Positions 27,221-30,035 of a stretch of 51,846 nt of DNA are shown one piece after another. The translations under genes were made by a program, and so were the position numbers. The stretch covers positions 1 through 51,846 of IMG/VR virus record IMGVR_UViG_3300046171_000023. One strand, given 5' to 3'. How positions within the stretch are numbered: position 1 is the stretch's first letter; each line of letters starts with the position of its first letter. Origin of the DNA: a virus (taxonomy: Duplodnaviria; Caudoviricetes). Below the pieces are notes generated by a model. It was given only the letters and a program-made list of their open reading frames with translations, did not search any database and was not told where the DNA came from.

Positions 27221-27249
27221 ATTATATGTTTTTTCTCGGCAGATGTCAA
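27221..27249 (-). promoter_or_regulatory. Consensus sigma70 early promoter
   Basis: TTGACA-17 nt-TATAAT, perfect consensus, with an AT-rich upstream element. Confidence 0.92.
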
Positions 27250-27282
27250 GCGTTTTAACAAACTTAAGATATATTTATAATC

Positions 27283-27564
27283 TTAAAATTTAGATACAGT
27301 CCAAACTGTTCCCATTTCCATAGTCGTATCACTCAAATAATCATAGTTAGATTTTAAAAACACATGTCCCATTTTAGGAAACTTATGTCTATAAATTACT
27401 GACCTATCTTCTTTGAAAGCATTTCTGACTTTGAAAATGTAGCCTAACTCATTGATATACCGTTCAACTTTGTCAAGACTGTTAAACTTTAAAGTCTTGA
27501 GTTTTGCATCTTCAATGACTTGCATATTAGATTTACCATTTGGGTTTTTACATTTAATTTTCAT
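27283..27564 (-). CDS. Hypothetical early protein
   Basis: RBS AGGAG before MKIKCKNP; lies between the two repeated promoters. Confidence 0.75.
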   Translation of the reverse strand: MKIKCKNPNGKSNMQVIEDAKLKTLKFNSLDKVERYINELGYIFKVRNAFKEDRSVIYRHKFPKMGHVFLKSNYDYLSDTTMEMGTVWTVSKF

Positions 27565-27622
27565 AATATCTCCTGTTGTATTGAAAATAAAAGCAAGGAT
27601 TGTTCCCTGCCATGCCGAACCC

Positions 27623-27650
27623 ATTTTACCGACCAAGCCAAAAAAGTCAA
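27623..27650 (-). promoter_or_regulatory. Sigma70-type early promoter
   Basis: TTGACT-16 nt-TAAAAT; shares its upstream repeat with the 27221 promoter. Confidence 0.75.
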
Positions 27651-27770
27651 GCGTCTTAACAAACTTAAGATATACTTATAATTTTAAGATTGCTAGGACT
27701 TAAACACAACTTTAAAATTATACTTAAATTATACTTAAATTTAAAAGTGCAAAAACTTAAAATTAAATTT

Positions 27771-27844
27771 AAATTCACAGGTTATCCACAGATATTTTAT
27801 ACTTATCCACAGGTAATTAACAGGATATACATAAGATATACACA
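27771..27844 (+). promoter_or_regulatory. DnaA-box array in AT-rich DNA (candidate origin or DnaA-binding locus)
   Basis: Perfect TTATCCACA at 27782 and 27803; degenerate boxes at 27771, 27814, 27825 and 27836. Confidence 0.7.
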
Positions 27845-27939
27845 GATTTGCCCTCAATTACCTGCCCAAATTTTAAAAATCCCTCAACCACCTGCAATGA
27901 ACTTAAAACTCGAGCTTAAACTTAAACTTAATTAAATTA

Positions 27940-27968
27940 ATTATTTCTTTGGTATGGTATCCTGTCAA
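27940..27968 (-). promoter_or_regulatory. Possible sigma70 promoter firing toward the DnaA-box array
   Basis: TTGACA-17 nt-AATAAT. Confidence 0.5.
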
Positions 27969-28040
27969 TTATAAAAAGCAATTACGAAGTAATTTCACTA
28001 TTAAGAATCAGATTTGTTTTAAAATATAACTTATAGACAT

Positions 28041-28073
28041 AAAAAAACTCTCCCACTTGTAAGGCGAGAGAGT
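28041..28073 (-). terminator. Rho-independent terminator of the two-gene unit
   Basis: ACTCTCTCGC-loop-GTGGGAGAGT followed by a T run, 10 nt after the stop codon. Confidence 0.85.
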
Positions 28074-28083
28074 CTTTGAGGCT

Positions 28084-28356
28084 TTAGTTAGCCTGTTGTT
28101 TGAGATACGAAGCTATCTTGTCAAGATATACTTTTGGAAGAGATTTGCCTGTAATAAGCGAATGAGCTTTCTTGAAGGTTAGTCTTTCTTCTTTAGCAAG
28201 GCTATAAAGACAGCCTGTAATTTGCTTTTGAAGCTTCCAGTTCATCTTAGTACCATTCTTAGCGAATTTGTACCCAATGGCTTGACATTGACGGAACGAA
28301 GCTGGGCTTGAAGTTCTGTCTTTGTCGAACGTGTTTATATCAAATGTATTTTCCAT
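28084..28356 (-). CDS. Hypothetical basic protein (90 aa) inside the fold-back
   Basis: RBS AAGGAG, followed by a terminator; PASFRQ...LTFKKAHSLI. Confidence 0.85.
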   Translation of the reverse strand: MENTFDINTFDKDRTSSPASFRQCQAIGYKFAKNGTKMNWKLQKQITGCLYSLAKEERLTFKKAHSLITGKSLPKVYLDKIASYLKQQAN

Positions 28357-28367
28357 ATTTTTCTCCT

Positions 28368-28550
28368 TTAAGAAATGGATTTATAAATACCTGCAATGTA
28401 GTCTTGCAAGTGGTTAGTATCAGAAGCATTAGTGCATCTGACTTTCACAGCATGAATGCCACTTATGAATAAATCCATAGTGTACATTTGTGCTGAAGAA
28501 ATTGTTGGAAACTCTAGGGTTTCGTTGTTTGAGTAGCTGACTAGTATCAT
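28368..28550 (-). CDS. Hypothetical protein (60 aa) inside the fold-back
   Basis: RBS TAAGGAG; stop overlaps the RBS of the next gene. Confidence 0.75.
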   Translation of the reverse strand: MILVSYSNNETLEFPTISSAQMYTMDLFISGIHAVKVRCTNASDTNHLQDYIAGIYKSIS

Positions 28551-29528
28551 AGTATCTCCTTATTAAATAGGTTCTTTTGCACATGAAGATTTTCAAGTAC
28601 AAGTGCTTGAGTTTTGTGAGGTTTTGGGAACAAAAGTTTTATAGATTTCCGAGTCTTCGAGGAAATACTGTAAACACTTGTACTTTAAAATCTTTATGTA
28701 ATTGTAAACCTGTTTAATGGAGATGCATATGATTCTTGTTAGGTACTTAAGCGACTAAGCCCAGAGTTTCCACGATTTATTAGTGCAAGTGTGCAGTATG
28801 GTTTTAGTCGTTAGTGGGATTTATGTTGTGGAACAAAAGCATGGGCTAATGCAAGGATGCTAAACACTTGGAAGGCTTTACAATTGCAGAGTATTTATGG
28901 ATTTGTTTCTTGAAGGAAGGGAAAATGTGAGAAAATCCTTTTGATATAGATGCGTTTGAGAACGACTAGAACTTCAGTTCAGATTTGTTTTGTCGGTGTC
29001 TCGCCATTGGTTATACAAATTACGTTAAGAGTGGTGCTTTAGTTGAACTAGGAAGGTTTTAAAGTAGATTAGAGGTTGTCAATGACATAGTCTTGATAGA
29101 GAAGGAAGACTCTTAAGCACCTTCAAGAAAGATTATTTGGGCATTTAAAATTTAGGCAAATCCCAAAAGTGTATCTTAGCACGATAGATTTGTGTCCAAA
29201 GAACAGAGCTGAGTAATGCCCAAAGAATCCGAAGCCTTCCAAGTGGGAGAGAAACCACAAAGGTCTAAAGTTATACTCCACTCAAATATGATTTATAAGG
29301 TGGGCAGGAGACCATACCCTCTACCCTATATATCTATAGCATGATTATACATTTTCTAGGATAATGGTCATTAACCAGAACTAGTTAACGCCCCGACATT
29401 AAAACTCTAAAGTCTTTGTAGTATTTAAAGGTATTTATTACACCCACAATATAGTCTCTCTACTAGGGAGCCAATAGTTTTGGAGGGGGTGTGTTTTGGT
29501 TATATTGAACCCGGGAGGGCACAATGTT

Positions 29529-29557
29529 AGTATAGCATCTAAATCACGATTTGTCAA
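29529..29557 (-). promoter_or_regulatory. Leftward sigma70 promoter of a back-to-back pair
   Basis: TTGACA-17 nt-TATACT. Confidence 0.8.
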
Positions 29558-29571
29558 TACCTAATTTAAAC

Positions 29572-29600
29572 TTGACAACTTTAAAATTAGAGTGTATACT
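29572..29600 (+). promoter_or_regulatory. Rightward sigma70 promoter of the late arm
   Basis: TTGACA-17 nt-TATACT; ATG begins 7 nt after the -10. Confidence 0.85.
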
Positions 29601-29606
29601 AGATTC

Positions 29607-30035
29607 ATGGCTATATTACCAAGTGTTGATACTACAACAACAAAAAGAGAACTAACAGATAAACAGAAGTCTTTCCTAGAGCACCTAGTTAATACTAGTG
29701 GTGATGCTAAGAAAGCTGCTGAACTTGCTGGTTATTCTTCACATTATCATCATGTTGTAAAGACTTTAAAGTCTGAGATACTAGAACTCACTCAAGAGAT
29801 ACTAGCAAACTCTGCACCTAAAGCAGCTTTTAAACTTGTAGAGATAATGGAATCTAAAAAACCTATAGTACAAGCAGCAAATAAACTTACTGCTGCACAG
29901 ACTTTATTAGATAGAGTTGGTGTTAGTAGAGTAGATAAAGTAGATGTAAATCATAACATGGCTAGTGGTGGTATCTTTTTGATGCCTGATAAAGCTCCTG
30001 TAGTTATAGATGCAGAGGATGCAGAGTATGACTAA
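29607..30035 (+). CDS. terS: Terminase small subunit (probably leaderless)
   Basis: LTDKQKSFL...AKKAAELAGYS HTH pattern; AAQTLLDRVG; first late gene. Confidence 0.75.
   Translation: MAILPSVDTTTTKRELTDKQKSFLEHLVNTSGDAKKAAELAGYSSHYHHVVKTLKSEILELTQEILANSAPKAAFKLVEIMESKKPIVQAANKLTAAQTLLDRVGVSRVDKVDVNHNMASGGIFLMPDKAPVVIDAEDAEYD

Follow-up and report, generated by a model that had tools for sequence, protein, structure and literature searches.

The window, as we call the whole stretch of 51,846 nucleotides analysed here, is the DNA of an HMO-2011-type marine podophage, a member of a phage family whose hosts are very likely SAR11-type marine bacteria. Its large terminase shares 65% identity with its counterparts in the Pelagibacter phages HTVC115P, HTVC103P and HTVC104P. 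Among its products are a T7-type primase-helicase, a family-A DNA polymerase, a ribonucleotide reductase and a T7-type endonuclease I, and neither a phage RNA polymerase nor a reverse transcriptase or an integrase was found among the ORFs scanned. All genes to the left of about 27640 are read leftwards, all genes to the right of 29607 are read rightwards, and the cumulative GC skew reaches its lowest point near 28000. From left to right, this region carries DnaA boxes, CCCTCAAY repeats, an AT-rich stretch, an imperfect foldback of about 1.35 kb (27950-29319), a near-invariant block and back-to-back consensus promoters. At the site of the DnaA boxes, relatives have up to 4-5 copies of the box, or different iterons. 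We infer that the DnaA boxes, the iterons, the AT-rich stretch and the turn of the skew make up a putative replication origin, which adjoins the foldback on its left. Given the polarity of the helicase, a fork moving rightwards from this origin-like region would make the + strand of the foldback the lagging-strand template. The GC skew of the + strand is +0.12 over the minus-strand genes of the cassette in the window; over all 55 elements, the left arm has a median of +0.04 and the right arm one of +0.13 (positive in 43/55 and 51/55 elements, respectively). The genes of a cassette without mirror have a skew of +0.01, and the minus-strand genes left of the origin range from -0.16 to -0.28. The features of the region are collected in Table 1.

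Table 1. Features of the origin-like region and of the foldback cassette (positions in the window)
Feature	Positions	Strand	Remarks
Two perfect DnaA boxes, TTATCCACA	27782..27811 (starts 27782, 27803; 21 nt apart)	+	Sole perfect copies in the window
Two CCCTCAAY repeats (27851, 27881), then AT-rich stretch	27851..27947	+	Remainder of the origin-like region
Left half of outer inverted repeat	27950..27966	+	Consensus of relatives GGTATGGTC-GA-CTGCC; window GGTATGGTATCCTGTC
Side hairpin AATTAC-GAA-GTAATT (AATTACGAAGTAATT)	27980-27994	+	6-bp stem, GAA loop, C-G closing pair
Intrinsic terminator of leftward unit	28043..28077	-	14-pair stem, then T run
Left arm of long foldback	28048..28608	+	Bears two minus-strand genes
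90-aa orphan gene	28084..28356	-	Invariant MENTFDIN start; good ribosome-binding site
60-aa gene	28368..28550	-	Own good ribosome-binding site; start region ATGAT(A/T)... kept in most displayed relatives
Apex hairpin A, TTTTGT-GAGGTTTTGGGA-ACAAAA in the window	28612..28635	+	C-GNA-G triloop in many relatives, including GCGAAGC
Apex hairpin B	28645..28666	+	ATTTCC stem, tandem G-A/A-G, TCTT loop; good form on + only
Right arm	28672..29251	+	Non-coding mirror of left-arm genes; mirrored ribosome-binding site and ATG
Near-invariant non-coding block	29296..29420		Homology to cassette-less relatives begins here
Right half of outer inverted repeat, GGCAG-GA-GACCATACC	29303..29319	+	Co-varies with left half
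Leftward sigma-70 promoter, TTGACA-17-TATACT with TG	29529..29557	-	Kept in 19/19 displayed relatives
Rightward sigma-70 promoter for terS (ATG 29607)	29572..29600	+	Kept in 19/19 displayed relatives

The two arms of the foldback differ in coding content. The median length of the longest stop-free run in the right arm is 51 codons on the + strand, compared with 55.5 and 55 codons for the other non-gene frames and 97 codons for the gene frame. The apex is made of two small hairpins rather than of a simple loop, and its minimum free energy (MFE) with RNA parameters is -13.7 on the + strand vs -5.1 on the minus strand. The 90-aa protein is modelled by AlphaFold as a five-helix fold (pLDDT 80.6), for which Foldseek gave no PDB match (best E-value 4.2), and a tblastn search with this protein gave no match. 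Neither the 90-aa nor the 60-aa protein has a Pfam or PHROG match, the ESM Atlas gave no usable match, and blastn of positions 27600-29700 against 50,697 phage records gave no match either.

Relatives of the cassette were fetched with the 90-aa protein, which yielded 60 IMG/VR loci with identities of 97-48%. All 59 loci with enough upstream sequence (one locus being too short) carry the gene a second time in inverted form, 510-640 nt upstream, and the mirror persists down to 39-52% protein identity. For the covariation analysis, 60 elements including that of the window were reduced to 55 unique ones, and to 51 after four partial elements had been dropped; in these 51 elements, 378 of 560 paired columns show at least two Watson-Crick pair types, each present in at least two loci. 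Moreover, 14 non-overlapping sister pairs contain 144 compensated double changes from one Watson-Crick pair to another. Comparison of these loci shows that the mirror follows the two small early genes by compensatory change across this marine HMO-2011-type family.

The cassette is also exchanged as a block. Loci L003 and L004 are identical over 400 nt on each side, and their elements diverge throughout. A set of 80 terS-related loci was taken among the matches listed (224 further loci are outside this count); 16 were too short, and the 64 with at least 1750 nt upstream comprise, among the matches listed, 50 with both gene and mirror and 14 with neither. Nine of these 14 cassette-less loci were aligned to the window, with homology resuming at 29296-29303. 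Since close relatives (14/64, among the matches listed) live without it, the cassette is not needed for replication. No long inverted repeat is present at the same divergent region of the cultured relative HTVC115P, and the 80 loci retrieved with the neighbouring 95-aa protein (L061-L140) share that gene only, an inverted repeat of at least 150 nt being found in 0/80 of them. The orientation of the cassette is the same in all loci; this constancy, and the lack of any such gene in the ORFs scanned, led us to reject readings that involve a protelomerase, an invertase or an integrase.

The cassette is flanked by an outer inverted repeat of 16-20 nt, the two halves of which co-vary (GGTATGGTC/GACCATACC, GGTGTGGTC/GACCACACC, GGAGTGGTC/GACCACTCC and GGCATGGTC/GACCATGCC, for example). 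The right half was matched by pattern in 59 of the 64 terS-related loci (among the matches listed), 14 of them without mirror, and a left partner is present 1111-1883 nt away in all 59. In the relatives devoid of mirror, the outer stem closes a non-palindromic loop of more than 1 kb (1.1 kb). Long-range pairing, such as that of this outer stem, whose halves co-vary over a distance of 1.1-1.9 kb, is more usual for RNA. The consensus outer stem of the relatives, like apex hairpin B, includes a tandem G-A/A-G on the + strand, which would be C-U/U-C on the minus strand. The motif TGGTC, which we take to match the T7 primase site, occurs on opposite strands of the repeat in 50/59 loci. The idea that the outer repeat provides T7-type primase sites is nevertheless weakened by the lack of TGGTC in the left half of 9/59 loci and of the window, whose left-half variant, GGTATGGTATCC, is also carried by L175 and L176.

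An earlier note on this DNA had counted 13 non-wobble mismatches between the arms, seven of which would be G-A or G-G on the + strand. A strict alignment of the arms, in which both kinds of transition are scored alike, gives 571 pairs, of which 450 are Watson-Crick, 62 G-T and 59 non-wobble mismatches (A-C 7, and 52 of the transversion type: G-G 12, G-A 11, C-T 8, T-T 15, A-A 6, C-C 0). A looser alignment has 625 columns (488 Watson-Crick, 60 G-T, 11 A-C and 66 of the transversion type, hence 77 mismatches) and 105 gap columns. The mismatches thus number 59 (or 77), and the share of G-A and G-G is 36-39% instead of 54%, but these two kinds remain well in excess of the complementary ones: G-G plus G-A vs C-C plus C-T is 23 vs 8 in the strict alignment. 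Compared with the outgroup L004, the G-T pairs of the window arose by changes in the right arm, C>T in 10 cases and A>G in 18. A G-T excess similar to that of the window is present in L001-L003, L005, L016, L030, L032-L047 and L044-L050, and G-G is more frequent than C-C in most loci. In the 14 sister pairs, exchanges between Watson-Crick and G-T pairs number 165 and exchanges between Watson-Crick and A-C pairs 33; G-T turnover is the higher in 11/14 pairs, reaching 57:2 in one, and the reverse is true in 3/14. This 5:1 ratio exceeds what we would expect from DNA mismatch energies as they are commonly given.

Folding energies point to the same strand, as the MFE is lower on the + strand than on the minus strand in 17/19 loci with RNA parameters and in 18/19 with DNA parameters; in the window, the minus-strand hairpin falls short of the + strand one by 226 kcal/mol (-402 vs -628 kcal/mol). 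The bias is not general: G-T and A-C counts are about equal, without excess, in L004/L008, L006, L012-L015, L019-L029 and L051-L059, and the mismatch spectrum of such symmetric clades is near-neutral, close to that of terS fourfold sites. A polarised triplet substitution spectrum gave right-arm counts of 249 A>G vs 133 T>C and 116 C>T vs 133 G>A, and serves as a rough control only, since the alignment is noisy with about 45% transversions. Comparison of the relatives shows that, in the clade of the window and in at least three other clades, it is the + strand pairs that are kept, and these sequence data strongly support the proposal that the + strand is the one that folds. In conclusion, the claim that the + strand exists as structured single-stranded DNA stands, for the window and its relatives, as far as the folded strand is concerned, but on the choice between DNA and RNA the evidence is split. 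The tolerance of G-G, G-T and G-A, which had been taken as a sign of DNA, is seen in the window but fits DNA and RNA alike.

Loop types bear more directly on this choice. The window has three C-GNA-G hairpins with a stem of at least 4 bp on the + strand vs none on the minus strand, one of them in the cassette region. For 59 unique related loci, the count over the element regions (104,809 nt) is 25 on + vs 0 on minus, and outside the element in the same loci (286,374 nt) it is 9 vs 2; the 25 hairpins of the elements occupy just two positions in related sequences. Restricted to the 55 unique elements, again with stems of at least 4 bp, the count is 23 on + vs 0 on minus; the apex accounts for 15 and the left edge for 8. 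On the + strand, the loops are GCA, GAA and GTA, and the exact sequence GCGAAGC is present in three distant loci (L054/L056/L058). None of the 55 elements contains a cUUCGg loop with a stem of at least 4 bp, and they have 16 GNRA loops on the + strand vs 29 on the minus strand. The examination of loops and mismatches across homologues that the earlier note had proposed, which also includes the large excess of G-G over C-C, therefore comes out on the DNA side. In a 2026 review of mini-hairpin DNA, melting temperatures are 76.5 °C for d(GCGAAGC) and d(GCGAAAGC) vs 39.0 °C for r(GCGAAAGC) (PMC13037366), and loops of this type are placed at the origins of G4, St-1 and alpha3, within ssiA of RSF1010 and in the promoters of the N4 virion RNA polymerase (PMC13037366). 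Counting against single-stranded DNA, the apex has its GAA loop on the minus strand, with a 2-bp stem, in L004/L007/L008/L011/L028, an arrangement that would be expected should the apex be turned round by recombination between the arms.

Energies do not lean in the same direction. L003, with 66 G-T pairs, and L004, with 10, have + strand energies of -643 vs -655 with RNA parameters and of -321 vs -428 with DNA parameters, so that G-U swaps are energy-neutral with RNA parameters only, which favours RNA. This is the only informative comparison of this type, as across 19 loci the MFE per nucleotide varies about equally with DNA or RNA parameters, and nearest-neighbour folding of the apex gives no preference for DNA over RNA. 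Searches of Rfam yielded no match at the gathering score in the whole window and, at E <= 1 over 27600-29700, three chance matches to microRNA hairpins; membership of any Rfam family was rejected, as there was no covariance-model match.

The minus strand of the cassette is clearly transcribed, judging from a consensus promoter at one end and a terminator at the other. The leftward promoter is predicted to drive a minus-strand RNA across the right arm, the apex and both genes. The stem of the leftward terminator co-varies, at least eight different stems being found among the 19 displayed relatives, and clustered mismatches (28066-28072 / 29227-29233) disrupt its mirrored copy in the right arm, so that the minus-strand RNA should be able to pass the right arm. 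For the + strand, the best promoter-like sites upstream of the foldback are at 27774-27803 (10/12 consensus positions) and 27690-27718 (9/12), with 12 promoter-like matches overall vs 9.4 +/- 3.2 in shuffled sequences. Other promoters of this phage match 10-12 of 12 positions (the main ones 11-12) and are conserved. The site at 27690-27718 is kept in the close relatives of the window, and the candidates are lost in clades with other iterons. The previous failure to see a TTGACA-type rightward promoter upstream is thus confirmed at the level of consensus promoters, and a weak one is possible. Four RNA libraries (unstranded contigs, depth 2-5) cover 28097-28474, 28902-29080 and 29526-29754; the last contig bridges the gap between the divergent start sites, and could be a read-through + strand RNA or a carry-over of DNA.

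The foldback recalls several known systems and is a member of none of the families with which we compared it. The RSF1010 origin contains two single-strand initiation signals, which are hairpins of one strand with GNA or GNNA mini-hairpin caps, according to the review (PMC13037366). As at the G4, St-1 and alpha3 origins and in RSF1010 ssiA/ssiB, GNA-capped + strand hairpins lie here beside an origin-like region, and a one-strand hairpin with a GNA/GNNA cap is indeed found in the relatives (23 vs 0), that of the window having one G-C pair. However, those signals are 40-100 nt long and gene-free, whereas the present element, at 1.35 kb, is more than ten times longer, contains two genes and is dispensable. 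The N4 virion RNA polymerase promoters are described in the same source as single-stranded DNA with a 5-7-bp stem and a 3-nt purine-centred loop, GGA or GAA (PMC13037366). With a 6-bp stem and a GAA loop, the side hairpin at 27980-27994 has this shape, but it is present in a single copy, lost outside close relatives and not located upstream of a gene. No N4-type virion RNA polymerase was found when the large ORFs (1311, 1502, 965 and 699 aa) were scanned against PHROG and Pfam; for lack of a conserved multi-copy set and of a polymerase match in these scanned ORFs, an N4-type hairpin promoter was rejected.

Frpo and ssi elements of the leading regions of conjugative plasmids are long imperfect DNA hairpins formed by one strand near early genes, the template strand of which they hold. 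The foldback is likewise a long imperfect hairpin on one strand that includes the template strand of its genes; in contrast with a conjugative plasmid, the phage genome enters double-stranded. A single-strand promoter of the Frpo type was rejected, as the right arm, which would be the non-template arm, has a -35-like TTGTCA with no -10 at 16-18 nt. In long hairpin RNAs and RNase III processing stalks, such as the stems flanking rRNA operons and the sites of T7 early mRNAs, long-range stems bracket a transcribed block. Here too a co-varying long-range stem encloses a transcribed block, with tolerance of G-U pairs, but there is no consensus + strand promoter, RNA-type tetraloops are not enriched and one arm codes for proteins on the opposite strand. 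The ends of Streptomyces linear replicons and the parvovirus hairpins are single-stranded DNA foldbacks with GCA-type triloops and a sheared G-A closing pair; they lie at the physical ends of replicons, whereas the present foldback is internal, with unique sequence on both sides.

We lean, tentatively and well short of certainty, towards a + strand fold that is selected as single-stranded DNA, that forms as the origin fires rightwards and that acts as an origin or fork signal. Behind the T7-type primase-helicase, the + strand would be the lagging-strand template or the displaced strand of the rightward fork, and the first 1.3 kb to be exposed would at once fold back into a hairpin that has DNA-type GNA mini-hairpins at its cap and flanks and that tolerates G-T, G-G, G-A and tandem G-A. 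This hairpin may serve as a single-strand origin or as a fork signal, holding the opened origin apart and/or marking the start of priming; such a role is a guess, made by analogy with the G4 origin and RSF1010 ssiA/ssiB. A single-stranded DNA fold is favoured by the restriction of GNA triloops to the + strand, the lack of a conserved + strand promoter, the position next to the origin, the skew pattern and the presence of the primase-helicase, and also because a minus-strand RNA is clearly made, yet the minus-strand pairing is the degraded one. It is weakened by the symmetric clades, the energy neutrality obtained with RNA parameters only, the outer stem of mirror-less relatives, the dispensability of the cassette and the single G-C pair of the side hairpin. 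A more ambitious version, in which the foldback would be a new kind of origin-side single-strand DNA device, with a 600-bp duplex that holds the origin open and joins the outer half-sites, seems unlikely to us; accessory early genes lodged inside an origin hairpin would then have to carry a non-coding mirror, which would co-evolve with them. It is also conceivable, if somewhat unlikely, that the + strand folds as RNA. A rightward transcript from the origin region, initiated at a weak or regulated promoter (27690-27718 or 27774-27803), would run antisense through the genes into their mirror and form a G-U-rich hairpin of about 600 bp, for which the outer stem would be a processing stalk. Such an RNA would account for the predominance of Watson-Crick to G-U turnover (165 vs 33 for A-C), for the neutrality of the L003/L004 difference with RNA parameters only and for the co-varying outer stem that closes a 1.1-kb non-palindromic loop in mirror-less relatives. 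Wobble pairs would reduce the palindrome at the DNA level yet keep the RNA duplex, and they are introduced for this purpose in the design of hairpin-RNA transgenes. The two promoter-like sites upstream, of which 27690-27718 is kept in close relatives, and the contig that crosses the divergent start sites (unstranded, of low depth and possibly carried-over DNA) are also in line with a + strand RNA. Nevertheless, no consensus + strand promoter is conserved and the candidates are missing in clades with other iterons, the loops are GNA triloops and not GNRA or UUCG, Rfam gave no match, and transcription would proceed head-on against a strong leftward unit; in addition, G-G and G-A are about as well accepted as G-U relative to the terS fourfold spectrum, in a rough comparison of pairs that are not independent.

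The minus-strand mRNA is another molecule that could fold, its 600-nt 5' leader, namely the mirror, pairing with the coding region and masking both ribosome-binding sites. This would set the timing or the level of the two early proteins, and the + strand bias would be a by-product. The conserved promoter (29557-29529) and the terminator (28077-28043) bracket exactly that RNA, which can pass the spoiled mirrored terminator, the mirror pairs with the ribosome-binding sites and the start codons, and symmetric clades fold equally well on this strand (in L004, -641 for minus vs -655 for plus). We regard this explanation as very doubtful, because the changes that would give harmless G-U pairs on the minus strand are the rare ones (33 vs 165), because this strand carries the worst kinds of mismatch (C-C, C-U and C-A), and because the left outer stem and the side hairpin lie beyond the terminator. 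Finally, the foldback may have no single-strand function and be a quasipalindrome kept by template switching or gene conversion, in which case the bias would stem from a mutation pressure that replication exerts on the + strand rightward of the origin. Quasipalindromes are known to undergo template-switch repair, the mismatch spectrum of symmetric clades resembles that of fourfold sites, both arms are G-rich on the + strand (by the median skews given above), and the cassette is dispensable (14/64 loci lack it, among the matches listed) and swapped as a block in L003/L004. Yet to explain a ratio of 5:1, and of 57:2 in one sister pair, mutation would have to favour one strand far more than the rough polarised counts indicate, the mirror persists to 39-52% protein identity, and only one of the strands has the tandem G-A and GNA motifs, so that we consider this origin of the foldback quite improbable.

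A search for the term 'inverted repeat' in the HMO-2011 and pelagiphage literature found no mention of it among the matches listed, and we found no described phage element of such a kind, whichever molecule folds. In this family of double-stranded DNA phages, a hairpin of 1.2-1.35 kb, with pairing tuned to one strand, is kept, with a non-coding arm that mirrors two protein genes and follows their evolution. In the case of a DNA fold, a single-strand DNA structure of kilobase size would be under selection at a phage origin; in the case of an RNA fold, the phage would make a very long strand-specific hairpin RNA. The foldback family is thereby a clean natural test case for distinguishing DNA from RNA folds by comparative data.

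The side hairpin, on which the earlier note was centred, is a minor, lineage-restricted feature at the left edge of the 1.35-kb foldback cassette. It had been placed in a left-arm segment without partner, correctly so, as the stretch of about 32 nt that holds it (27975-28005) aligns to a gap in the right arm. The unusual stability expected from its C-GNA-G loop is another matter: the class is confined to the + strand, but this copy is weak, with a single G-C pair in its stem, and occurs in some lineages only. The presence of two G-C pairs is indispensable for unusual stability, according to the mini-hairpin DNA review (PMC13037366). Nearest-neighbour energies of -1.8 (DNA, +), -2.1 (DNA, -), -1.3 (RNA, +) and -1.6 kcal/mol (RNA, -) show no strand preference and none for DNA over RNA. 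Perfect hairpins that combine a 6-bp stem with a 3-nt loop number 25 in the window, compared with 24.0 +/- 5.2 in 30 dinucleotide shuffles, so that the side hairpin alone is no rarer than chance. As the minus strand continues with GCTTTTTATA after it, the side hairpin may simply be a second, weak terminator for leftward transcription; it was not called in the terminator scan, and the T run is missing in L025/L032-type loci. Other clades lack the side hairpin or have different hairpins in its place, and it is retained in the close relatives L001, L002, L007 and L048, the version in L004 having an AAA loop.

Phages that are otherwise identical swap, as one block, the cassette enclosed by the outer repeats (L003 versus L004, compared over the element region), and in 14 of 64 relatives its position is filled by unrelated small leftward genes (for example at 1140-2240 of L143), which carry their own promoter and terminator and have no mirror. 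Among the terS-related loci (L143-L222), the left half of the outer inverted repeat has TGGTC on the + strand in 50 of 59 loci. In the right half (29303-29319 in the window) the minus strand carries this word in 59 of 59, and the bases beside it co-vary. TGGTC is absent from the window's own left half (27950-27966). TGGTC is a recognition site of T7 primase, and the phage encodes a T7-type primase-helicase.

At the right edge of the cassette, a non-coding block at 29296-29420 is conserved above the level of the adjacent genes in all relatives, including those that lack the cassette; the motifs within it are listed in the table, together with a divergent promoter pair. The -10 of the rightward promoter stops 6 nt ahead of the terS ATG (29607), which would give terS a transcript with little or no leader.

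To the left of the foldback, 27700-27947 is probably a replication origin: it contains DnaA boxes, repeats and an AT-rich stretch, and the cumulative GC skew of the window turns there. In some relatives the DnaA boxes are swapped for other repeats, of the GTGACAATT... type.

Sequence features in and around the putative origin, the conserved non-coding block and the terS start
Feature	Position in window	Strand	Remarks
Perfect DnaA boxes	27782, 27803		only two perfect copies in window
CCCTCAAY repeats (n = 2)	27851, 27881		within 27700-27947
TGTATAAT	29351-29344	minus	inside 29296-29420 block
Palindrome TTAACCAG...CTAGTTAA			inside 29296-29420 block
Back-to-back consensus sigma-70 promoters (n = 2)	29529-29609		spacing 14 bp

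Many short IMG/VR contigs among the loci found with the 90-aa protein (L001-L060) end at two places, one close to the start of terL, about 3.3-3.9 kb rightward from the 90-aa gene, and the other just left of the element, at the origin repeats. Candidate causes are repeats at which the assembly broke off, regions of variable sequence, and the ends of genomes. Further left, the window has two copies (27246-27290 and 27645-27690) of a module about 45 nt long (GTCAAGCGTYTTAACAAACTTAAGATATAYTTATAAT), and each copy directly precedes a leftward promoter. The module might be a site where a regulator binds, or it might consist of two divergent promoters.

At the apex of the foldback, the window has a single copy of the G-rich word GAGGTTTTGGGAG (28618-28629), which occurs twice at the apex of some relatives (L017, L048) and there provides four G runs on the + strand; on sequence grounds, the doubled word might form a two-tetrad G-quadruplex. 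The right arm (28672-28712 in the window, and in relatives) retains conserved words of its own, two TGTAAAC about 37 nt apart, which are not imposed by pairing with the left arm.
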